64,000 nucleotides of DNA from the NCBI GenBank assembly GCA_000165345.1, contig CM000431.1:928001-992000 (forward strand), written 5' to 3'. Shown here in pieces: positions 10,206 through 47,605 of the stretch. The position numbers and the translations under genes are program-made. The notes under the pieces were generated by a model. It was not told the DNA's origin. It did not search any database and worked only from the letters and a program-made list of their open reading frames with translations. Every line of letters begins with the position of its first letter. The stretch's first letter is position 1.

Positions 10206-10991
10206 ATGTCATTAAATAAACAGAGTTTGAGGTTAAATGAGGCACAGCTAATAGCAGTAAGAGAGACTTTTGATTTAGCAGATGATGATTCAGATGGAAA
10301 GATTAACTTTGATCAGGTAAGTTATTTTTTTTGAAATCGTTGAATAAATATATAAAAAATATAAGATTAATAAAGTATATTACATATAATTTATAAGGAG
10401 TGAATCGATTATTCTGTTTTTTTATTTGACTAAATAATTTTACAGTAATTTTGTATGCTTTATATAAATGATTCATTTCCTAATAATAAATTATTATTAT
10501 TATTTTGAAAATATAATAAATAACTAATTAATTATTTTATTAACTCTGAAATGTTTTAGGCATGTATTCTGTTTAGAGTACTTGGGCAAACAATAACAGA
10601 CCGCGATTTAAAAACAGCATTGTTGGAAGGTTGGCCAGGACTTGATATTCAATCTGATGAAACTAAGGACAAAGGGTTTAAGAAAATAGATACAAGTTCA
10701 TTGGCTCCAATAGAATTTGATGCATTTATTAAAATTTTCAGAGCCAAATATAAGATTCCTTTTGATGAAGATACAATAATTGAAGCTTTTCAAGTTTTTG
10801 ATCCTGAAAATACAGGACTTATGCCAGCAAATTCTTTTGTAAAATTAATGACAACAACAGGAGAACCTGTTCCAGCAAATGATGTTGAAGATTTATTACT
10901 ACTTGCAAATGTTGATAAAGATGGCAAATTTGACTATACTCAATTAGCAAAGAGGCTTGTTGAAGGTCCCAAGAACGTTCGTGTTTTATAA
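10206..10991 (+). CDS. EF-hand calcium-binding protein, calmodulin or myosin-light-chain-like. Two exons: join(10206..10316, 10560..10991).
   Basis: Exon 1 reads MSLNKQSLRLNEAQLIAVRETFDLADDDSDGKINFDQ. It contains a canonical EF-hand loop (DDDSDGKINFDQ) and ends at a GTAAGT donor at 10317. The intron is 243 nt and very AT-rich. The acceptor AG at 10558-10559 joins in frame to the listed ORF 10620..10991 (ACILFRVLGQTITDRDLKTALLEGWPGL...), which has further EF-hand-like loops (DPENTG, DKDGKFDY). Confidence 0.6.
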
Positions 10992-11121
10992 TAAAAAATT
11001 CAAAAATTTTTCGAGTAAAATTTCATTTAGTAAATATAAACAAAGGAAGACATTAATTTTTTTCTTTTTTTTTAATACATGTCTATTATCTCTGCAATAA
11101 CGGTATTTCATAAATTGTTTA

Positions 11122-11170
11122 TCCACATGAGTGCATGCATGAAAATTTGCATCCACATGACGTAGTGCAT
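11122..11170. promoter_or_regulatory. Repeated TCCACATGA plus GTGCATGCATG elements about 1 kb upstream of Hsp90. TCCACATGA plus TGCATGCGTGCATGCAT recurs at 14572-14645.
   Basis: The stretch aTCCACATGAgTGCATGCATGaaaatttgcaTCCACATGAcgtaGTGCATG is visible. TGCATGCA is a motif reported as over-represented upstream of Cryptosporidium genes (established knowledge). Function is not verified here. Confidence 0.3.
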
Positions 11171-12125
11171 GATTGAATTAATTATTATAATGTAAGTTAG
11201 TAACGGTGATAAGTTAAATTGAGATTTGGACATAAAAAAAAGGAAATAAAGGTAAATTTGATGCTGAAAGAATGGGATAAGAAATTTGGGAGGAATACAA
11301 ATTTAGGTATTATGCAAGCGTGATACAAATAGAAAAGAGTCTTGAAGAAAAGCTTGCATACATGACTATTTCGTGGTAATTCAAGTTCTTTCAATAATAC
11401 AATTTATTCTTGAGAATACATATGAACAGTTAAGTTTTAAAATGGAATATTTAAATTTTCGACTTAAATATTCAGCAAAAAAAAATTAACAAAACGACAA
11501 GAAAACAATTTAATCTTATTTTCTATGCAATAAATCAACATTCACTAAAGTGTTGGGAAAGTTAAAAATAATCTGGAGAAGAAAATATTGTGAGGGTTAA
11601 TGGGGGGTTACGACGTTGTTAGAGTGGGATAGCAGAAAATGAATATTGAGAAGTAATACGATCATTTCCTTTCAATATAATGTCACAGATAACACAGTAA
11701 AAATATATTTAAATTAATTTCTGGCACTAATATTTAATACGCAATAAATATAACTAAGAGGGGAATTCAAGTAATTTTTTATGAGGGTATCGGTGAGACG
11801 GGTACGCAAGTATTGTCTCAACAATTACCCCCATTTAAAATAAAGTTAATAATCAAATTAAATAAATAGATAAGAATAATTAAATAGATAGTAGAATAGT
11901 AAAGACCGGAAATGCATAGACGTAAAAGTAAATATAGTTATATAATGCCAAATAAATGGTGAGATATTTAATAGATAAGTCAAGGGGGGGAAGTTTAAAT
12001 TAAAATTGAATAAAATAGGGGCAGGTGAGAGAAGAGATAAAATCATTCTATCAAAAAAAGGGTAATTTTCATTTTTTAAGAAAACTTGAAGATTTTTTAT
12101 TTCTATAAAACAAATAACCATCAAA

Positions 12126-14225
12126 ATGGTAGAGACTTTTGCATTCAATGCTGATATTCAGCAGCTGATGAGCTTGATCATCAATACTTTTTACAGCAAT
12201 AAGGAAATCTTTTTGAGAGAATTGATTTCTAATGCCTCCGATGCTTTAGACAAGATCAGATATGAATCCTTGACTGATCCAGAACAATTAAAGAGTAATG
12301 AGGAAATGCATATTAGAATTATTCCAGATAAAGTTAATAATACTTTAACTATTGAAGATTCTGGTATTGGTATGACTAAGAATGAGCTTATTAACAATTT
12401 AGGTACTATTGCTCGTTCAGGTACAAAGGCATTCATGGAAGCAATCCAAGCTGGTGGTGATGTTAGTATGATTGGTCAATTTGGTGTTGGTTTCTATTCT
12501 GCTTATCTTGTTGCTGATAAAGTTACTGTAATTACCAAACATAATGGTGATGAACAATACATTTGGGAATCATCAGCTGGTGGTTCATTCACTATTACTA
12601 ACGATACATCAGACAATAAGTTACAAAGAGGTACTAGAATCATCTTACACCTTAAGGAAGATCAATTAGATTATCTTGAGGAGCGTACCTTGAGAGATTT
12701 AGTAAAGAAGCACTCAGAATTTATCTCCTTCCCAATTGAACTTTCTGTTGAGAAGACTACAGAAAAAGAAATCACCGATTCTGATGTCGATGAGGAGGAA
12801 GAGAAGAAGGAGGGTGAAGATGGTGAAGATGCACCAAAAATTGAAGAAGTTAAAGAGAAGGAACCAAAGAAGAAGAAGATTACAGAAGTAACTCAATCGT
12901 GGGACTTACTTAACAAGAATAAACCAATCTGGATGAGAAAACCAGAAGAAGTTACTTTTGAAGAGTACTCTTCTTTCTATAAATCAATCTCAAATGATTG
13001 GGAAGATCCTCTCGCAGTTAAACATTTCTCAGTTGAGGGTCAATTAGAATTTAAGGCAATTCTCTTTATTCCAAGAAGAGCTCCATTTGATCTCTTTGAA
13101 ACCAGAAAGAAGAGAAACAACATTAAGCTTTATGTACGTAGAGTATTCATCATGGATGACTGTGAAGAATTGATCCCAGAATTCTTAGGATTTGTTAGAG
13201 GTGTTGTTGATAGTGAAGATCTTCCATTAAACATTTCAAGAGAATCATTACAACAGAATAAGATCCTTAAGGTCATCAAGAAGAACATTGTTAAGAAATG
13301 TTTGGAATTGATCACTGAAATTACTGAAAAGCCTGATGATTACAAGAAATTCTATGAACAGTTCAGTAAGAATCTTAAGTTAGGTATTCATGAAGATACT
13401 ACCAACAGAAATAAGATCAGTGAGCTCCTAAGATATCAAACATCAAAGAGTGGTGAGGAACTCATAAGCTTAAGAGAATATGTTGATAGAATGAAGGAAA
13501 ATCAAAAGGAAATTTACTACATTACTGGTGAATCTATTCAAGCAGTACAAAACTCACCATTCCTTGAGAAGCTTAGAAAGTTAGATTATGAGGTAATTTA
13601 CATGGTTGACCCAATTGACGAATACTGTGTACAACAAATGAAGGAATTCGATGGCAAGAAGTTGAGATGCTGTACTAAGGAAGGTCTTACTTTAGAGGAA
13701 ACTGCTGAGGAGAAGGAAGCCTTTGAAGCTCTCCAGAAGGAATATGAGCCTTTATGCCAGTTAATTAAAGAGGTTCTTCATGATAAGGTTGATAAGGTTA
13801 TCACATCTCAGCGTATTTCTGACTCACCATGTGTACTCGTTACATCTGAATTTGGATGGTCTGCAAATATGGAACGTATCATGAAGGCTCAAGCTCTTAG
13901 AGATACAAGTATGACATCTTATATGATGTCCAAGAAGACTATGGAAATTAATCCATATAACTCTATCATTACTGAGCTCAAGACCAAGATTGCCAATGAC
14001 AAGTCTGATAAGACCGTCAAAGACTTGATTTGGTTACTCTATGATACTTCCCTCCTTACTTCTGGTTTCTCATTAGAAGATCCAACTCAATTCTCATCCA
14101 GAATCAACAGAATGATCAAGCTCGGTCTTTCTATTGATGAGGAAGATATTGTTGATGATCTCCCACCTCTTGAACCAGTTAATGATGCAGAGCTCCAAGC
14201 ATCTAAGATGGAAGAGGTTGACTAA
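12126..14225 (+). CDS. HSP90: Cytosolic heat shock protein 90 (HSP90/HSP83).
   Basis: 699-aa single-exon ORF. It has the GHKL ATPase N-domain ([39 protein letters not shown]), a charged linker, and the conserved middle and C-terminal domains. It ends with the cytosolic Hsp90 co-chaperone docking motif MEEVD. Confidence 0.95.
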
Positions 14226-40900: not shown

Positions 40901-41247
40901 TTAGTTAATATTACTTAAATAGACTTAGAATATAACAACTGATATAATAAAAATAGTAAAGACTCGTGTATTTAAGAACAACAAATCTCAATTAAATAAT
41001 AATTAAAAAAAAATGATATTATTTTTACTGATAATATAACAAATAGTCTGTAAATTCTACCATTAGTCCTAATAATATGAGTTTGGATTACGTGGTGTAA
41101 TTCCAATGTGGATAATTATTAAAGCAGTATCAGACAAATTACGTCAGATAAAAGAATAAATATCCGCAATCTCAATAATAAGAATAAAATTCTATGATGA
41201 AATAACCTTTAGATTAAGGTAATTAGATAGTGATTGGACTGATAAAT

Positions 41248-41577
41248 TTACTCGTATGATCTTATGATATCAGAATCACCTGGGTCTGTAACAGTCATGC
41301 AGCTAACACGATATAGTTTACCACAAGAGGTACCTAAATCATTGTTACCACCTTGGAAATGGTGAACACCAATCTTGGAGAGCATTGCATAGTATTCAAT
41401 TTCGGATCTTCTTAGAGGAGGGCAGTTGTTTGAGATTATAACCAAACGAGCAGTACCATTTCTGATAGATTTAACAGTTGAACGGTATCCAAGACAGACC
41501 TTACCACTCTTCATGACAAGTTGTAAGCGACTGGTCATACCTTCAGATTTACCCTTAGATGAACCCTTCTTGGCCAT
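41248..41577 (-). CDS. RPL30: 60S ribosomal protein L30e.
   Basis: 109 aa. It has [69 protein letters not shown] and [10 protein letters not shown], which is near-canonical L30e. Confidence 0.85.
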
Positions 41578-42360
41578 TTTTATTTATTCCTCTTCACAAA
41601 CTAAGATCTGAGTCTTGAAATTATTTTAACTTTTTTCTTTTAGATAACTTATTTCAATTTCTTGAAACTCGTCTTGTTTAAGAATAATTAGTTATTTCCC
41701 AATAATTTGTCTAATTGGACTCGCGCCATAAACAAAAAAATATAAATTCTTTTTTCTTTTAAAATTATTATTTAATTAAATGTATAATATATGATGTATA
41801 TATATTTTATATATAAATATATATAAAATATATATTATAAATTTGTACCTGAATTTTTTTTTGTGTATTATAATCTCTATAGACTATTACTATTTATTTA
41901 TTCTTCGCGTCTCATTTCTTTTATAATAATTAAAAACAAAATACCGCCAAAACTAGACACGTGTATTGGCGGGTTTTATTTGGAAATTACTTAAAAATAT
42001 TGCTAGTGGCGATAATATTTTACATGTAAAAAAAAAACAGAGCACACTAAAATACTTGTAAAGGGGGGAAATAGAAAATAAAAAAATTATAAATAATTTT
42101 TTAAAAATAAGAAAAGTGGTGCATTTGATTGAAAAAAAGAACTTTATTCCGAGATTATGATGTTGTTGGTGTTCTTGACTAATTCAGAATAAGAAGAAAG
42201 TGTTAATTTAGGAAGAAACCTACAGAAAGGGTCGAATTAAATATAATAAATAAGTAATTAATTATTATTGGAAGGATAATTGTGCGAAGTTTATGAAATT
42301 AGAGGTCAATACGAATTAATTTTGAGTTTTTATCATTATCATTGAATTAAAGTAATAGTC

Positions 42361-45300
42361 ATGAATTTAACCAATGAGAATATTTCAAACCAGGGCCAGG
42401 AGATTTCAAGGAATGGGAATTTTGAGATAATTGATAATGGGAAATCCGAAGATAATAGTAAGGAAATAATTCTTGAGAAATGTAGGGTAAAAGTTTCTTC
42501 AGATGGAGTTTATGAATCATTGCCAGTTGAAAGAAAAAGTATCGATGCTAAATCCAGTGAGAAGGCAAGCGATAAAATTCAAGGGGATACTGTTTTTGAA
42601 GTTTTACCTAGATCAGAGTCTAATGCAGATGCAAGTTATAATAAAGCTGGTGACTTTGTTAATGATATCGGGATTTTTGAGTCATTACCAAAATCAACTT
42701 CTGATGCTGATTATAAGTATAATGAAAGGGTGGATATTACACAAGATAGGATTGTTTTTGAAGTATTACCACGCTCTGATAATATTGTTCACTATGATAA
42801 TGACACCAGTAATGAATCTTCTATTAAAGTAAATGAAATGATTAAAAAGAAGGAGTCAGAATTGAATAATATTTTAAAAGAGCAGAAAATTGATGGAGAT
42901 ATTACTAGTAGAAATGGGAATATAGAAAATGATCCTACTTTAGGTTTAAGTATTTATAACGAAGAATCAGTTTCTCCTCCATCTGAAACTTCGATGACCA
43001 TTTTTGAGAATTTACCAATTAAGAAAGAAAATATCGATATCGATAACGAGTTTCAATCAAATTCTATTTTATCAGACAATAATATAATTGAGAATCATCA
43101 ATCAATTTTTGAAACTGCAAACTTGTCCAGATCAAATAGTTCTTCTCATATTTCTAGCTTAAAGGATGGTGAGGAAGCTGAAAGACTAACGAGTAATGAA
43201 GTGAGTGAGCATAGTGAAATTAGTAATGATGAATGCGAAAAAGATCTAAAAAGTAATTTTGAGCTTAATAATCAATTAATTACTGATTTTAATCAAGATG
43301 TAAAAACTCAAGATAAAAAAGAGCTTTCACCACAAGTTGAGAGCAAAGCAAATCTTAATATTGTTGTAAATAGTGAGAAGTCGGTCTTTGAGGTAGTTCC
43401 ATCTGAACAATCAAGAGCTGATATTGGGTATAATTCCAAAATACCACTAAGTTTTGATGAAAGGACGGTTTTTGAATCAAAGCCTGTAGCGAATTCAAAT
43501 GCAGATGTTAGCTATAATTCAAAGGTTGGTATCACAAAAGCAGAAGAAAGGTCAGTATTTGAGTCATGTCCAATTACTGATTCGAAGGCAGATGTTAGTT
43601 ATAATTCAAAATTTCAGCCAAGAAAAGACGAAAAAATTATATTTGAATCGAATCCAATTGCTAACTCGAATGCAGATGTTGGATACAATACAAAAATTGG
43701 CTTAGAAAGACAGGAAAAGTCAACTTACGAATCAATCCCTACTATCGGGGTAGTAGCAGATGTTAGCTACAAATCCAAAGCACAAACTAATTCTGGAAAT
43801 GAAAAGTCTATTTTTGAATCTGTTCCAATTTCCAATTCAATAGCTGATGTCAGTTATAATTCTAAATCACAGCCTATTAAAGAAGAAAAGGTTGTATTTG
43901 AATCAATTCCATCAGAAAATTGTAAGATAGATGTGAGTTATAATTCCAAGTTGGATTTGAAAGGACAGGAAAAGTCAGTATTTGAATCCAATCCTATGAT
44001 GACTTCCAATGCTGATGTAGGTTACAATTCAAAGCCAGAAATAAATTTGAATGAGAAATCCGTCTTTGAGTCGGTTCCATCCAATATTTCAAAAGCCGAT
44101 GTGAGTTATAACTCGAAAATAACTAATACTTCTGAGAAGTCAATCTTTGAATCGGAGCCAATAAAAAATGTTAATATAGACGTGAGTTATAATTCCAAGT
44201 TGGATTTGAAAGGACAGGAAAAGTCAGTATTTGAATCCAATCCTATGATGACTTCCAATGCTGATGTAGGTTACAATTCAAAGCCAGAAATAAATTTGAA
44301 TGAGAAATCCGTCTTTGAGTCGGTTCCAACCAATATTTCAAAAGCTGATGTGAGCTACAACTCTGTAGTAGCCAATACTTCTGAGAAGACCATTTTTGAG
44401 TCAGAACCAAGAAGGAACTCAGTGGCGGATGTAAGCTATAACTCCAGTTTGATTCCTATTTCTAAGGATGAAAAGACTGTATTTGAATCCAATCCAAATG
44501 TTGATTCAAAGGCAGATGTTAGTTATAATTCTAAAATAGAATTAAAAAAAGACGAAAAGTTTGTATTTGAGTCAAATCCTAATGTTGATTCTAATGCAGA
44601 TGTTAGTTATAATTCAAAGCTTCAGCCAAGAAAAGACGAAAAATTCATATTTGAATCTAATACGACAGTTAACTCTAAGGCAGATGTTAGTTATAATTCA
44701 AAATCTGAACCTAAAATGAACGAGAAGTCCGTATTTGAGTCCAGTCCAATTCTTAGCTCAGTTGCAGATGTTGGGTACAACACCAAAGGAGTTGGTATGA
44801 CTCAAGAAAAATCTGTCTACGAATCAGTTCCAATTAGTAAATCTAAAATAGATGCTGGCTATGATACAAAGTTGGACTTTACTCATGAAAATAATAAAAC
44901 TATATTTGAATCAAACCCATCTTGTGAATCTATTGCGGATGTTGGATATAATTCAAAGATTGAAACAAGAACAGAAGAAAAATCAGTTTATGAGTCAAAT
45001 TACGATAAAGTTTCTAAGGCTGATGCTAGATATAATTCAGATTCAAGCCAAATCTATCCTCCAGAGAAGATGGTATATGAATCAACTCCTGTTGTTGGAT
45101 TAGCTGTGGATGCAAGGTTTGCAGATCAAAACAATACAAACGAAGAGAAGCAAACAGTTTTTGTATCTCTTCCAAGGTCTGAGTCAGTTTTTGATGCAAG
45201 CTACTCGTTAAATAATGAATATAGGCAGGAAAAGACAATATTTGAGTCAGTACCCAATACAAAAGGGATCAGAATAGATGCAAGATCCAGTGATACCTCT

Positions 45301-45384
45301 GAAATAATGAATTTTCAGTCTAAGACAGTTTTTGAATCAGTACCCAAACAGTCTTATGCTGATGCAAAAAGCGGGAATATATAG
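42361..45384 (+). CDS. Tandem-repeat protein of 1007 aa. The first 330 aa or so are non-repetitive except for three degenerate repeat copies. About 24 tandem 27-29-aa repeats follow, with consensus EKSVFESxPxxNSxADVSYNSK(x5-7). No signal peptide is evident.
   Basis: Direct reading of the translation shows the periodicity (...SVFESNPMMTSNADVGYNSKPEINLNEK / SVFESVPSNISKADVSYNSKITNTSEK / SIFESEPIKNVNIDVSYNSKLDLKGQEK ...). The repeat family is not one I recognise. Confidence 0.6.
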   Translation: MNLTNENISNQGQEISRNGNFEIIDNGKSEDNSKEIILEKCRVKVSSDGVYESLPVERKSIDAKSSEKASDKIQGDTVFEVLPRSESNADASYNKAGDFVNDIGIFESLPKSTSDADYKYNERVDITQDRIVFEVLPRSDNIVHYDNDTSNESSIKVNEMIKKKESELNNILKEQKIDGDITSRNGNIENDPTLGLSIYNEESVSPPSETSMTIFENLPIKKENIDIDNEFQSNSILSDNNIIENHQSIFETANLSRSNSSSHISSLKDGEEAERLTSNEVSEHSEISNDECEKDLKSNFELNNQLITDFNQDVKTQDKKELSPQVESKANLNIVVNSEKSVFEVVPSEQSRADIGYNSKIPLSFDERTVFESKPVANSNADVSYNSKVGITKAEERSVFESCPITDSKADVSYNSKFQPRKDEKIIFESNPIANSNADVGYNTKIGLERQEKSTYESIPTIGVVADVSYKSKAQTNSGNEKSIFESVPISNSIADVSYNSKSQPIKEEKVVFESIPSENCKIDVSYNSKLDLKGQEKSVFESNPMMTSNADVGYNSKPEINLNEKSVFESVPSNISKADVSYNSKITNTSEKSIFESEPIKNVNIDVSYNSKLDLKGQEKSVFESNPMMTSNADVGYNSKPEINLNEKSVFESVPTNISKADVSYNSVVANTSEKTIFESEPRRNSVADVSYNSSLIPISKDEKTVFESNPNVDSKADVSYNSKIELKKDEKFVFESNPNVDSNADVSYNSKLQPRKDEKFIFESNTTVNSKADVSYNSKSEPKMNEKSVFESSPILSSVADVGYNTKGVGMTQEKSVYESVPISKSKIDAGYDTKLDFTHENNKTIFESNPSCESIADVGYNSKIETRTEEKSVYESNYDKVSKADARYNSDSSQIYPPEKMVYESTPVVGLAVDARFADQNNTNEEKQTVFVSLPRSESVFDASYSLNNEYRQEKTIFESVPNTKGIRIDARSSDTSEIMNFQSKTVFESVPKQSYADAKSGNI
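43933..44430 (+). repeat. Two tandem near-identical copies of a 249-bp unit. Each unit holds three protein repeats and lies inside the repeat-protein CDS.
   Basis: The stretch gtgagttataattccaagttggatttgaaaggacaggaaaagtcagtatttgaatccaatcctatgatgacttccaatgctgatgtaggttacaattcaaagccagaaataaatttgaatgagaaatccgtctttgagtcggttcca... occurs at 43933 and again at 44182. Only a few substitutions separate the copies over about 180 bp. Confidence 0.8.
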
Positions 45385-45451
45385 ATTTTCAATTTGAGTT
45401 AAAATTTAGATTCAAATAATACAATTATAAAAATGTTCTTTCTAATGAGAT

Positions 45452-47605
45452 CTATTCCTCAGTTTTTTTGTCTTGGGGTGTGGGGTAAGTAACTTGTGTA
45501 ATAACCTTTGGACTATCATCAGTTTTGAGATTCTCCGATTGAATTACTTGTTGCATAGCTTGGGAAGCTTCAAAACCGAGTCTAACTGGTTCCTTATTTA
45601 CATGAAGGTAGAGTAGATAGGATGAGGGGGTAGATTCTGGATGTTCTTTTGATTCTTCTGTTTGATTTTCATCTTTGCAATCTTCCACAGTAGCTTGAGT
45701 AATTTTGTTTACAGCATGTACTGTTGTATAGTCTAATTTACCTTGAGAATCAATATTTGGCCAAACAACTGCGAAACCTTTCTTAGGTTTTATTTTGATT
45801 CCAGCATAAGGGAAGTCTAATTCTCCTCCATTTTCAACATCAGAAAGGAAAACTGAAATTGTATGAGTTCTATTATCTCCATCATGGTGTTCTTTAATGT
45901 AATCATTGACGGAATATTTGTGTACCAGGATTGGCTCCATATAAAGATTGCTAGAGTCTACAAGAATTCCAAGCCTATTTTCAATCTGTCTAATAAGAGG
46001 AGTTTCTTCTGGTTGAATACAGGCAGTTGAAGATCTACAAAAATCCTCATCTTCATCTTGTTCATTTTTATAATCTTGATCATCTGTTTTTTCATCTTTA
46101 ATTTCATCAGTTTCGGATTTCTTGCTTTCTTTTTTGGCTATTGATATCTTTGAATCCTCTAGTCTATCTTGGACAAGGGAAATAATCTCATCACATTCAT
46201 CTTGGTTTAGAGCATTTGGGATAATAAATATCTTAGGATTAACCTTACTGGCAACTATTCTCTGTAAAAGAGCAGGTTTCTTGTTTTTACTAATATCAAT
46301 TTCGGAATTGTTATTTAATGGCTCGGTACCGATTGTCGCTTGAATACCATGTTGTCTTAATAATTGAGCTGCAGCATTTAGTTGACTAGCGATAAATTGT
46401 TGTTGCTGTTGTTTGATCATTGCCTCAATCTTTGACATGTCAGTGGTTGGCTGCATAATATTTGGTTGAATAGACTCTGGAATAACGGCATTTCCCATAT
46501 TTGGAACAGCTCCAGCTCCAAGATTCACTCCTGGAATATTCATTCCTGAGATATTCAACCCTGCAGCAGTGCCAATTCCTGGAATACCACCAAGAGATCC
46601 AAGAGCTGCACTTGAAATCTGATTTGCAGTCTGTGAAGACGAACCTACATCTTTTGTTGGAATTAAATTGGGGTTTCCCAAGAATGCAGCAAGCTGAGGA
46701 GTTAGCTGAGATTGTGTAGCTGAAGCAGCTCCAACTGGTAAGTTAGCGCTTCCAGGCATTACACCAGTTACTCCTGTTGGAGCCCCTAAATTCCCTGGGA
46801 TTCCTGAAATTCCTGGAATTCCAGCAAGAGAACCCAAGGAATGCCCGGCATTGGTAGCCTGGCCCAAGTTTTGTGGAGCAACAGAAGCAGAAGCAGAGGA
46901 TGGGGATTGCTTGCTCTCAGCTGAATTAGTATTGGAAGCGGTCTGAGTATTATTTTGAAGTTCGGATAGAGCCAAAGCAATCTTTTGTTTCTGCATCCAA
47001 GTAGCCAAGTTCAAATCTTGTCCTTGAATACCACACAAATTAGGTACTCCTGCCTGCATATTTGGAAATTGAATTGGCTGTAAAGTTGGTTTCTGAACAT
47101 TTAAGCCCAAAGAAGCAAGGACATTGGGGTCTAACGCTCCAACTGGTGGAATGTTATAACTTGTGGTTGTAGAGCTTGGAATCATATTATTCAAATTTAA
47201 GGTTGCTCCCAAGGTCTGAGCTGGAATTCCAGAACTAAGACCAAGTCCAAGACTTGGAGTATTCGCTATACCGGGAGGTATCTGGTCTTTTGAAGCATTA
47301 ATTTGCATTCTCATCATAAATTGTTGTAATTGTTCCATATTCATTGCAGACATTGGGAATTGAGATGTGGGGATGTTTGTTGCTGTAACTCCACTTCCTG
47401 GCTTTCCTACTTGAGTATTATCAGCTGTAATTCCTGTTCCACTAGTTTGCCCTTGTAATAAATTATTAGTTTCTAATTTTGAAGTATCTGATTCTGAAAT
47501 AGGTACCATATTAATATAGGTACCTAATAACTTAGGTTCTGGCGGTGTGACTCCTCTAATAACATTCTTTGTTTCTTCATTAACGCTTGAATTATTTTCA
47601 GACAT
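45452..47605 (-). CDS. Prolyl 4-hydroxylase-like 2-oxoglutarate/Fe(II) oxygenase. It has a long G/S/A/N/Q-rich low-complexity N-terminal region.
   Basis: 717 aa. The C-terminal approximately 200 aa carry P4Hc-type motifs. There is an HxD facial triad (HHDGDNRTHTISVFLSDVENGGELDFPY), then KPKKGFAVVWPN, and a distal His (HAV). The N-terminal 380 aa or so are low complexity. Confidence 0.55.
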   Translation of the reverse strand: MSENNSSVNEETKNVIRGVTPPEPKLLGTYINMVPISESDTSKLETNNLLQGQTSGTGITADNTQVGKPGSGVTATNIPTSQFPMSAMNMEQLQQFMMRMQINASKDQIPPGIANTPSLGLGLSSGIPAQTLGATLNLNNMIPSSTTTSYNIPPVGALDPNVLASLGLNVQKPTLQPIQFPNMQAGVPNLCGIQGQDLNLATWMQKQKIALALSELQNNTQTASNTNSAESKQSPSSASASVAPQNLGQATNAGHSLGSLAGIPGISGIPGNLGAPTGVTGVMPGSANLPVGAASATQSQLTPQLAAFLGNPNLIPTKDVGSSSQTANQISSAALGSLGGIPGIGTAAGLNISGMNIPGVNLGAGAVPNMGNAVIPESIQPNIMQPTTDMSKIEAMIKQQQQQFIASQLNAAAQLLRQHGIQATIGTEPLNNNSEIDISKNKKPALLQRIVASKVNPKIFIIPNALNQDECDEIISLVQDRLEDSKISIAKKESKKSETDEIKDEKTDDQDYKNEQDEDEDFCRSSTACIQPEETPLIRQIENRLGILVDSSNLYMEPILVHKYSVNDYIKEHHDGDNRTHTISVFLSDVENGGELDFPYAGIKIKPKKGFAVVWPNIDSQGKLDYTTVHAVNKITQATVEDCKDENQTEESKEHPESTPSSYLLYLHVNKEPVRLGFEASQAMQQVIQSENLKTDDSPKVITQVTYPTPQDKKTEE

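Follow-up and report, generated by a model that had tools for sequence, protein, structure and literature searches.

The repeat-protein gene and its surroundings

The window, i.e. the whole stretch of 64,000 nt of DNA that was analysed, contains a gene on chromosome 3 of Cryptosporidium parvum with an extended array of tandem repeats. The following features are needed for its description:

41248-41577, minus strand: upstream neighbour, a gene of the L7Ae family
42361-45384, plus strand: intronless gene encoding an uncharacterised repeat protein of 1007 aa, C. parvum IOWA-ATCC chromosome 3 (ORF list and translation)
43375-45381, plus strand: contiguous repeat array of approximately 24 tandem units of 27-30 aa (motif-anchored parsing and unit identity matrix)
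45452-47605, minus strand: downstream neighbour, a prolyl 4-hydroxylase-like gene

In NCBI assemblies a gene of 1007 residues is called at the position 42361-45384. Motif-anchored parsing revealed the unit consensus EKSVFESxPxxxSxADVSYNSKxxxxxx. The final unit of the array is a partial one of 18 aa, and four to six degenerate units are present upstream of the main array (aa 47-260). At the DNA level the 24 units are well diverged, with a mean pairwise identity of 59% (range 44-85%).

A homologue search with the repeat protein gave two matches only, and when ten remote homologues were scanned, no Pfam domain was found apart from one UDPGP fragment. The Pfam match to RseA_C (E 2.8e-15) was rejected as spurious, because it sums weak matches to the repeat motif and no single stretch passes. 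The best hit of a sequence search against PDB had an E value of 0.24. An AlphaFold2 model of units 7-12, which is of low to moderate confidence (pLDDT 64.6, pTM 0.63), predicts two beta strands per unit. Foldseek found no match to it in PDB below E 0.1, and the weak matches were mostly beta-helices. These weak matches suggest that the repeat protein may fold as a solenoid. In the protein cluster collection the proteins of the neighbouring genes are present, but neither the exact 1007-aa product nor its 924-aa allele (see below) nor any orthologue was found there. Database and literature searches for the repeat-protein locus yielded no cgd or CPATCC identifier and no publication.

Two adjacent 249-bp blocks with a nearly identical core

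In the array, two consecutive blocks of 249 bp stand out. Their parts are:

43933-44181, plus strand: copy 1 of a three-unit block, running from the 3' part of unit 7 through units 8 and 9 into the 5' part of unit 10
44182-44430, plus strand: copy 2 of the block, running from the 3' part of unit 10 through units 11 and 12 into the 5' part of unit 13
43933-44079, plus strand: exact tract of 147 bp, the same as 44182-44328 (offset-249 mismatch list)
43933-44105, plus strand: core of 173 bp, very probably homogenised, paired with 44182-44354 (distance matrices)
44106-44181, plus strand: 76-bp tail of copy 1, very probably unconverted, paired with 44355-44430
44134-44217, plus strand: unit 10, a hybrid (unit listing)

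The initial annotation had described the two blocks as almost identical over about 180 bp, as encoding three protein repeats each, and as more alike than other repeat pairs. Our measurements agree with this description. Base-by-base comparison at an offset of 249 showed two mismatches in the 173-bp core (44080 and 44097) and none in the 147-bp tract, and each block encodes 28+28+27 aa, which correspond to three protein units. When all 190 non-overlapping pairs of three-unit blocks were ranked, the pair of copy 1 and copy 2 was at the top with 89% identity, against a mean of 60% (sd 6%). Tandem Repeats Finder reported a head-to-tail repeat at 43916-44410 with a period of 249, 2.0 copies, 91% matches and zero indels, and a repeat search paired 43897-44145 with 44146-44394 at 90%, the next-best copies reaching 62%. 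After the 147-bp tract, the second-longest exact self-match of the gene is 23 bp.

The identity is unevenly distributed over the blocks. The 76-bp tails of the two C. parvum copies differ at 28 sites (63% identity), and units 7, 8 and 9 are 80, 100 and 88% identical to units 10, 11 and 12, respectively. In 200,000 permutations of 30 mismatches over 249 sites, exact runs never reached 147 (maximum 92), and the analytic upper bound for such a run by chance is about 1e-11. At third codon positions the copies differ at 1 of 57 sites in the core and at 15 of 26 sites in the tail. Since the identity of the core reaches synonymous sites, it is not due to selection at the level of the protein.

Unit 10 is composed of two different halves. 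Its 5' half (EKSIFESEP...) resembles unit 13, while its 3' half (IDVSYNSKLDLKGQ) equals that of unit 7. Together with the unit length pattern 28-28-27 followed by 28-28-27, this hybrid constitutes the signature of an old duplication. Judging from this pattern, unit 10 may represent the junction of an old unequal crossover.

Both blocks are present in related species

Orthologous loci were retrieved via the neighbouring genes. C. hominis, C. tyzzeri and Cryptosporidium chipmunk genotype I all possess both 249-bp blocks at the corresponding position, and their gene diverges from that of C. parvum by 2.5-16% (16% in chipmunk genotype I). In the assembly of C. ubiquitum a run of N is located inside the array, which is hard to assemble.

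The tails and the cores of the blocks behave differently. In each of the four species, 26-31 of the 76 tail sites differ between copy 1 and copy 2. The orthologous tails, in contrast, differ at 1-3 sites among C. parvum, C. hominis and C. tyzzeri (in either copy) and at 11-13 sites when compared to chipmunk genotype I. For the copy-1 tail of C. parvum, 1-2/76 differences to C. tyzzeri and C. hominis and 11/76 to chipmunk genotype I were counted. Thus, the duplication predates these species. For the 173-bp core, comparison of copy 1 with copy 2 gave 2 differences in C. parvum, against 9 for C. hominis, 10 for C. tyzzeri and 15 for chipmunk genotype I. Between species, 7-15 differences were found among C. 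parvum, C. hominis and C. tyzzeri, and 21-28 to chipmunk genotype I. In C. parvum, and likewise in chipmunk genotype I, the two core copies clearly resemble one another more than either resembles any orthologue, while C. hominis and C. tyzzeri show about as many differences within as between species. All four species share the core boundaries.

Furthermore, lineage-specific substitutions occur in both copies of the core. Three C. hominis-specific substitutions are present in both copies (43950/44199, 44009/44258 and 44086/44335), as is one substitution specific to C. parvum (44043/44292), and in chipmunk genotype I many lineage-specific substitutions are common to both copies. The locus combines mosaic identity between the copies, orthology of the tails and a core that evolves in concert.

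Probable recent gene conversion in an old duplication

The initial annotation had attributed the second block to a recent unequal crossover or replication slippage event. According to this explanation, the 249-bp unit was duplicated in C. parvum and the copies are too young to have diverged, and the very high identity across 147-173 bp would be expected. The one-copy allele of C. parvum and the one-copy gene of C. meleagridis, both described below, could also be read as the state before the duplication. However, a fresh copy would match over all 249 positions, while 76 bp of them are 37% different, and the second copy is not absent from the sister species: the copy-1 tail has orthologues in C. 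tyzzeri, C. hominis and chipmunk genotype I. A variant of this explanation, in which the other assemblies are contaminated with C. parvum DNA, is ruled out by the gene divergence of 2.5-16%. We consequently regard a recent duplication as highly improbable. The sharp confinement of the identity to 147-173 bp, and not to all 249 bp, indicates that the gene conversion is recent and not the duplication.

Alternatively, purifying selection at the nucleotide level could keep the core alike, for example if it harboured a structured RNA, a regulatory site or an antisense product. The core boundaries common to the four species would be in line with this possibility. Yet the core lacks conservation between species: C. 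parvum and C. hominis differ there at 9-10 of 173 sites, C. parvum and chipmunk genotype I at 21-25 of 173, which is at or above the gene average. Substitutions common to both copies within a species are a signature of conversion and not of constraint. In addition, no Rfam family was detected at E up to 0.1 across positions 41000-46000, and the gene contains no inverted repeats of at least 40 bp. We give hardly any credence to such selection.

Very probably, therefore, the two blocks originated by an ancient in-frame tandem duplication of three 28-aa units (249 bp), and intragenic (non-allelic) gene conversion then made their central 173 bp alike again on repeated occasions, the latest of them in the C. 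parvum lineage. Only C. parvum and the chipmunk lineage clearly demand a conversion of their own. The pattern in the cores of C. hominis and C. tyzzeri could be partly explained by a single ancestral conversion followed by lineage-specific drift. The exact tract of 147 bp is the largest possible extent of the latest conversion in C. parvum. Copy 2 was probably the donor and copy 1 the recipient in this species, as suggested by three informative sites: at 43964-5 and 44034, copy 1 carries the state of copy 2.

A shorter allele in short-read contigs

The initial annotation had also proposed that the site varies in length and that short-read assemblies collapse there. Concerning the first point, we found an allele of 924 aa, which lacks exactly 249 bp, in Logan short-read contigs from 18 samples, which are possibly many runs of one strain (the named runs DRR729258 and DRR729259 belong to the DRR7292xx series). 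This allele was read from de Bruijn-graph contigs. It consists of the left flank of copy 1, the exact tract and the continuation of copy 2, so that the crossover falls within the exact tract at 43933-44079. The copy-1 tail (44106-44181), which is unique to the long allele, is missing from these contigs. The contigs thus suggest a variation in length, with two states seen (two copies or one copy).

Concerning the second point, the ends of 22 Logan contigs coincide precisely with the first or last 31-mer that is unique next to the exact tract, which implies two copies. In C. parvum the last base before the break is 43962 (43932+30) and the first base after it is 44299 (44329-30), and in C. hominis one contig begins with the first unique 31-mer past a 32-bp repeat. 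The Logan pipeline breaks at repeated 31-mers and does not collapse them. Difficulties of short-read assembly at this site are therefore real in the form of breaks, while collapses were not demonstrated. Since breaks at 43962 and 44299 occur reliably in short-read assemblies of C. parvum, the gene models are truncated in most public short-read data.

Both the duplicate and the short allele could, in principle, be artefacts of assembly: the duplicate in the reference could be mis-assembled, or the 924-aa allele could be a short-read collapse with no real polymorphism in C. parvum behind it. In favour of an artefact, all occurrences of the 1007-aa product are in chromosome-level assemblies, none in a Logan contig, and the array is difficult to assemble, as illustrated by C. 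ubiquitum. Against an error in the reference, the gene is base-for-base identical in the separately fetched chromosome-level assemblies GCA_015245375.1 and GCA_048859185.1, and the exact 1007-aa product is present on four contigs longer than 1 Mb. Moreover, both copies are found in four species, including C. hominis (assembly TU502_2012), and short-read contigs branch exactly where a two-copy genome predicts. Against a collapse, the same pipeline breaks here in 22 contigs and at the 32-bp repeat in C. hominis. A contig that runs through the site implies that the copy-1-specific path of 102 bp (44080-44181) is absent from the graph of that sample. The run-through contigs also have a flanking haplotype of their own: they carry the private variants 43279 T>A and a deletion at 42132, and they lack the variants at 40939 and 41240 which are present in two-copy contigs of that run series. 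Taken together, an artefact is unlikely.

A gene of 924 aa with one copy of the block was also read in C. meleagridis (GCA_001593445.1, which we take to be a short-read based assembly). In a second C. meleagridis assembly the same Snu114 protein is located on a contig of 1.09 Mb. Because the two-copy form is older than C. parvum, C. hominis, C. tyzzeri and chipmunk genotype I, the single-copy state is derived.

We lean to the view that the 249-bp block is a true two-state structural polymorphism of C. parvum (1007/924 aa), generated by deletion between gene-converted repeats, and that C. meleagridis suffered the same loss independently. In some isolates one block seems to be lost by way of the exact tract, and homogenisation would then be a cause of the deletion.

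Proposed course of events

C. parvum is an obligately sexual parasite, and the history of the locus may be envisaged in four steps. First, the blocks 7b-8-9-10a and 10b-11-12-13a with the hybrid unit 10 would have arisen when units 7 and 13 of an older array underwent unequal crossover. This would have taken place before the split of C. parvum and chipmunk genotype I. Second, the blocks would have diverged, including the 76-bp tail, which was presumably never converted since then and is now 37% different. Third, misaligned homologous repair, possibly by synthesis-dependent strand annealing or meiotic conversion, would have copied one core over the other at least once per lineage. The last such event in C. 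parvum would have covered at most 147 bp and spanned at least 43964-44034, with copy 2 as the probable donor. Fourth, the resulting perfect direct repeat of 147 bp could have served as a substrate for unequal crossover or single-strand annealing, by which exactly 249 bp (83 aa) would be lost in frame, giving the 924-aa allele. The one-copy architecture of C. meleagridis would have been reached independently.

Implications and comparison with known systems

Where gene conversion is active, the identity of tandem copies does not date their duplication, and at this locus the unconverted tail of 76 bp provides an internal control. If the two-state polymorphism is true, the central units of a conserved SVFESxP-repeat protein represent a length-variable region driven by recombination, and the locus offers a simple, gel-resolvable lineage marker, the length of which is perhaps under selection. 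The in-frame indel of 249 bp apparently distinguishes haplotypes of C. parvum, and gel electrophoresis could be used to score it. The mechanism is ordinary and the locus was not found described in the literature. As the mechanism is textbook knowledge and the protein is uncharacterised, the finding has little significance beyond this locus.

Concerted evolution by gene conversion is known for tandem repeats of the circumsporozoite and merozoite surface proteins of Plasmodium, for repeats of bacterial surface proteins, and for rDNA and other arrays. Like in those cases, the paralogues described here are closer than orthologues, the tracts have sharp boundaries, species-specific substitutions occur in both copies, and units are gained or lost in frame. 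In contrast to those arrays, homogenisation is limited here to one pair of three-unit blocks while the rest of the array is well diverged, and the unconverted tail serves as an internal clock by which the old duplication can be told apart from the recent conversion. Unlike those proteins, the C. parvum repeat protein has no known surface or antigenic role.

It is established in recombination biology that direct repeats undergo deletion by unequal crossover or single-strand annealing. The short allele is the exact product expected from recombination inside the perfect 147-bp repeat, and the deletion is known here from this product and not from its pathway.

Finally, the locus can be compared to the mini- and microsatellite loci used for typing of Cryptosporidium. 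Those treated in PMC4746124 include ML1, ML2, TP14, MSB, CP47, MSC6-7, 5B12 and cgd2_3850, and the motifs shown for them in the parts consulted are of 2-6 bp, with alleles a few bases apart. The name Cgd3_3850, which also appears in that paper, was considered for the present locus. The Methods write cgd2_3850, so that probably a different locus is meant. Our literature search found no publication in which the repeat locus at 42361-45384 was used for typing. Like the established loci, it is a coding tandem repeat of C. parvum with a copy number that apparently depends on the isolate and that could be sized by PCR. Unlike the 2-6 bp motifs shown for them, it changes by a step of 249 bp, with two states seen.

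The repeat-protein gene and its array

The window belongs to chromosome 3 of Cryptosporidium parvum. The gene studied here is flanked by ORFs that match exactly the C. parvum Snu114-type GTPase, Nuf2 protein, DEAD-box helicase and prolyl 4-hydroxylase-like protein, and a 22-kb stretch of the window is 100% identical to CP044420.1 of GCA_015245375.1 (IOWA-ATCC assembly). Its features are:

42361-45384, + strand, intronless repeat-protein ORF, 1007 aa
about aa 339 to the C-terminus, + strand, array of 24 contiguous units, each 27-30 aa long, the last one partial
43933-44181 and 44182-44430, + strand, copies 1 and 2 of a 249-bp block

The units have the consensus EKSVFESxPxxxSxADVSYNSKxxxxxx and are numbered along the array; the N-terminal region contains a few additional degenerate units. 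The first and last units (42361-42900 and 45140-45384) are the conserved ones, with TVFEVLPRSESNADASY... on the N-terminal side and TVFVSLPRSESVFDASY... and TVFESVPKQSYADAKS on the C-terminal side, and terminal units are still recognisable in the C. andersoni protein (P0045). Variation in unit number between species concerns the central units.

In the AT-rich intergenic tracts beside the gene there is a (TA)n-rich microsatellite, and C. parvum assemblies and contigs differ there by several short indels or homopolymer lengths. The positions concerned are 41783-41839, 41854, 42097, 42132, 47908 (a 4-bp insertion relative to IOWA-ATCC), 37040 (a 2-bp insertion relative to IOWA-ATCC), 55555 and 51860. 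At position 45449 the window and its own assembly have G, while all other C. parvum loci aligned there have A.

Two adjacent blocks share an almost identical core

Tandem Repeats Finder reported 43916-44410 with a period of 249, 2.0 copies, 91% matches and no indels. In a repeat search 43897-44145 and 44146-44394 were 90% identical, the next-best in-register copies reaching 62%. Base comparison at offset 249 revealed that 43933-44079 equals 44182-44328 exactly over 147 bp. The core of each block (43933-44105 and 44182-44354) differs by 2 mismatches in 173 bp, while the remaining 76 bp, the tail, contain 28. A run of this length is not expected by chance: it was reached in none of 200,000 shuffles of 30 mismatches across 249 sites (maximum 92), and the analytic bound is approximately 1e-11.

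Each block encodes three protein units (28+28+27 aa), and units 7, 8 and 9 are 80, 100 and 88% identical to units 10, 11 and 12 at the DNA level. Among 190 pairs of three-unit blocks the two copies are a clear outlier (89% versus 60 ± 6%), and the 24 units have a mean pairwise DNA identity of 59% (range 44-85%). The initial annotation, which described two nearly identical three-repeat blocks in an otherwise diverged array, was right in these respects.

The duplication is old

The same annotation attributed the second copy to recent unequal crossover or slippage. We obtained orthologous loci via the flanking genes.

Product length and block copies at the locus
C. parvum, window and chromosome-level assemblies: 1007 aa, 2 copies
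C. parvum, 18 contigs of the Logan short-read set: 924 aa, 1 copy
C. hominis UdeA01: 1007 aa, 2 copies
C. hominis TU502 (2004): contig spans the gene in part, 2 copies
C. hominis TU502_2012: 1007 aa, gene length only
C. tyzzeri: 979 aa, 2 copies
Chipmunk genotype I: 1014 aa, 2 copies
C. meleagridis UKMEL1: 924 aa, 1 copy

Both blocks are present at the orthologous position in C. hominis UdeA01, C. tyzzeri and chipmunk genotype I, where the longest exact offset-249 runs are 33, 65 and 68 bp, respectively. In each of these species and in C. parvum the two tails differ at 26-31 sites. Copy 1 tails differ at only 1-3 sites among C. parvum, C. hominis and C. tyzzeri and at 11-12 sites from chipmunk, and copy 2 tails follow the same pattern; gene-wide, C. 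parvum diverges by 15.8% from chipmunk genotype I and by 2.5% from C. hominis. Since paralogous tails are far apart and orthologous tails close, the ancestor shared by C. parvum and chipmunk genotype I must have carried both blocks in an already diverged state.

Judged from the sequences, the split into core and tail is decisive for the age of the duplication. A recent duplication should show uniform identity across the unit and a second copy missing from sister species; the 28 tail mismatches and the orthologous blocks and tails in the three other species contradict this. A single old unequal crossover would have duplicated three units, with which the length pattern 28-28-27/28-28-27 and the hybrid nature of unit 10 are consistent. 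The 3' half of unit 10 equals unit 7 and its 5' half resembles unit 13, suggesting that unit 10 is the crossover junction.

Gene conversion keeps the core alike

In the core the pattern of the tail is reversed. Differences between the two copies number 2 for C. parvum, 9 for C. hominis, 10 for C. tyzzeri and 15 for chipmunk, whereas comparison of orthologous cores gives 7-15 differences among the first three species and 21-28 against chipmunk. Substitutions specific to C. hominis (43950/44199, 44009/44258, 44086/44335) and to C. parvum (44043/44292) are found in both copies, as are many specific to chipmunk genotype I. Protein-level selection as the cause of core identity is ruled out by synonymous positions, the copies differing at 1 of 57 third codon positions in the core and 15 of 26 in the tail. 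Selection at the nucleotide level is ruled out because the core varies between species; Rfam contained no family matching the gene region. The pair was positive in all four conversion-tract tests applied. As read from these substitution patterns, non-allelic gene conversion has made the cores evolve in concert, which accounts for their near-identity, and the latest event is C. parvum-specific. At 43964-5 and 44034, where outgroups tell the copies apart, C. parvum copy 1 has the copy-2 state, which makes copy 2 the probable donor. The converted tract spans 43964-44034 at the minimum and 43933-44079 at the maximum.

A one-copy allele in short-read contigs

The exact 1007-aa product is confined to four chromosome-level contigs. 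Contigs from 18 Logan samples (DRR729258, DRR729259 and 16 similar places) traverse the gene minus exactly 249 bp, in the order copy 1 left flank, single exact tract and copy-2 continuation, which is exactly what recombination within the 147-bp tract would yield. Since 44080-44181 is absent from this allele while its orthologues are present in other species, the short allele is derived from the long form and not ancestral.

The initial annotation also expected short-read assemblies to collapse here. Further Logan contigs terminate exactly at the branch points expected of a two-copy genome at k = 31: ten start at 44299 (44329 − 30; L005, L016 and 6 similar, L017 and 1 similar) and twelve stop at 43962 (43932 + 30; L019, L020 and 10 similar). 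In C. hominis, too, a Logan contig begins at the first 31-mer that is unique again past a 32-bp repeat. The site is thus a trouble spot, but the pipeline breaks at it and does not collapse it. The one-copy contigs differ in their flanks: 43279 T>A and the loss of 1 bp at 42132 are private to them, and the variants at 40939 and 41240, which two-copy contigs of the same series of runs have, are missing. We consider the 924-aa allele, as observed in assembled contigs, probably genuine overall; the samples may be non-independent. Length variation of the proposed kind is probable, with one- and two-copy forms among C. parvum contigs of uncertain independence, and the earlier interpretation as a whole is partly supported.

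Remodelling elsewhere in the array

In C. meleagridis the architecture is also one-copy but the sequence is its own, differing from C. parvum at 15 core sites; this is an independent loss if its assembly is right. In its gene (L010 contig, 10528-13302) one additional unit near unit 4 stems from two hybrid units similar to units 16-17, and units 14 and 15 are fused; this array was remodelled independently. The gene matches itself exactly over 56 bp at offset 759. In C. tyzzeri (L009 contig, gene 10534-13473) units 4 and 5 are fused as EKIIFESNPIANSNADVSYKSKAQSNSGN, an 84-bp in-frame loss via adjacent-unit recombination that explains the 979 aa. Central units differ in C. ubiquitum and at a further species' locus (L015, 764 aa). 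Such gains and losses show that the whole array evolves through unequal recombination.

The C. ubiquitum locus (L014, 14151-16890) has a 70-base N run within the array, another assembly casualty, and an annotated product of 872 aa inconsistent with the locus span; no 27-aa NTSEK unit was seen in this N-containing array. A second, weaker similarity links 43536-43780 and 44544-44788 (units 2-4 and 14-16; 76% identity, with 85% for units 3 and 15 and 81% for units 14 and 15), and at offset 843 the short allele matches itself exactly over 28 bp. The similarity of units 2-4 and 14-16 could reflect an older conversion or duplication spanning 12 units.

The repeat protein

Pfam gave no credible family for the protein, an RseA_C match adding up sub-threshold matches to the repeat motif, and a PDB sequence search found no relative. 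When 1.8 billion representatives were scanned in full with HMMER, only 28 matches emerged, other proteins of SVFESxP...A repeats; a Pfam scan of 10 of them yielded no domain except one UDPGP fragment, and none for the repeat itself. The 28 representative clusters (including P0047-P0071) apparently come from G+C-richer organisms and repeat this short motif, SVFES/TFES-x-P...S.A, with spacers that vary. These proteins may form an undescribed repeat family. AlphaFold2 predicted two beta strands per unit for units 7-12 with modest confidence (pLDDT 64.6, pTM 0.63), and Foldseek with this model gave no match below E 0.1, the weak ones being mostly beta-helix proteins. It is tempting to speculate on a beta-solenoid or hairpin stack. 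A 15-billion-protein cluster collection lacks the protein, its 924-aa allele and any orthologue and includes all neighbours, and the contig index (find_encoding_contigs) does list the gene; the absence is a database quirk and not biology.

Comparison with known systems

Our literature search found no paper describing the 249-bp block locus. In the available text of PMC4746124 one VNTR locus goes by Cgd3_3850 in the tables and Results but by cgd2_3850 in the Methods, apparently a naming inconsistency that might misdirect anyone searching for markers on chromosome 3. As a newly found instance of an otherwise ordinary mechanism, the block pair is of use as a warning and perhaps as a simple marker. 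While the C. parvum mini- and microsatellites in the available text of PMC4746124 have motifs of 2-6 bp, this locus changes in steps of 249 bp. The mechanism itself is a textbook one: a coding tandem array evolves in concert, and the direct repeats thus homogenised then undergo a deletion between them.
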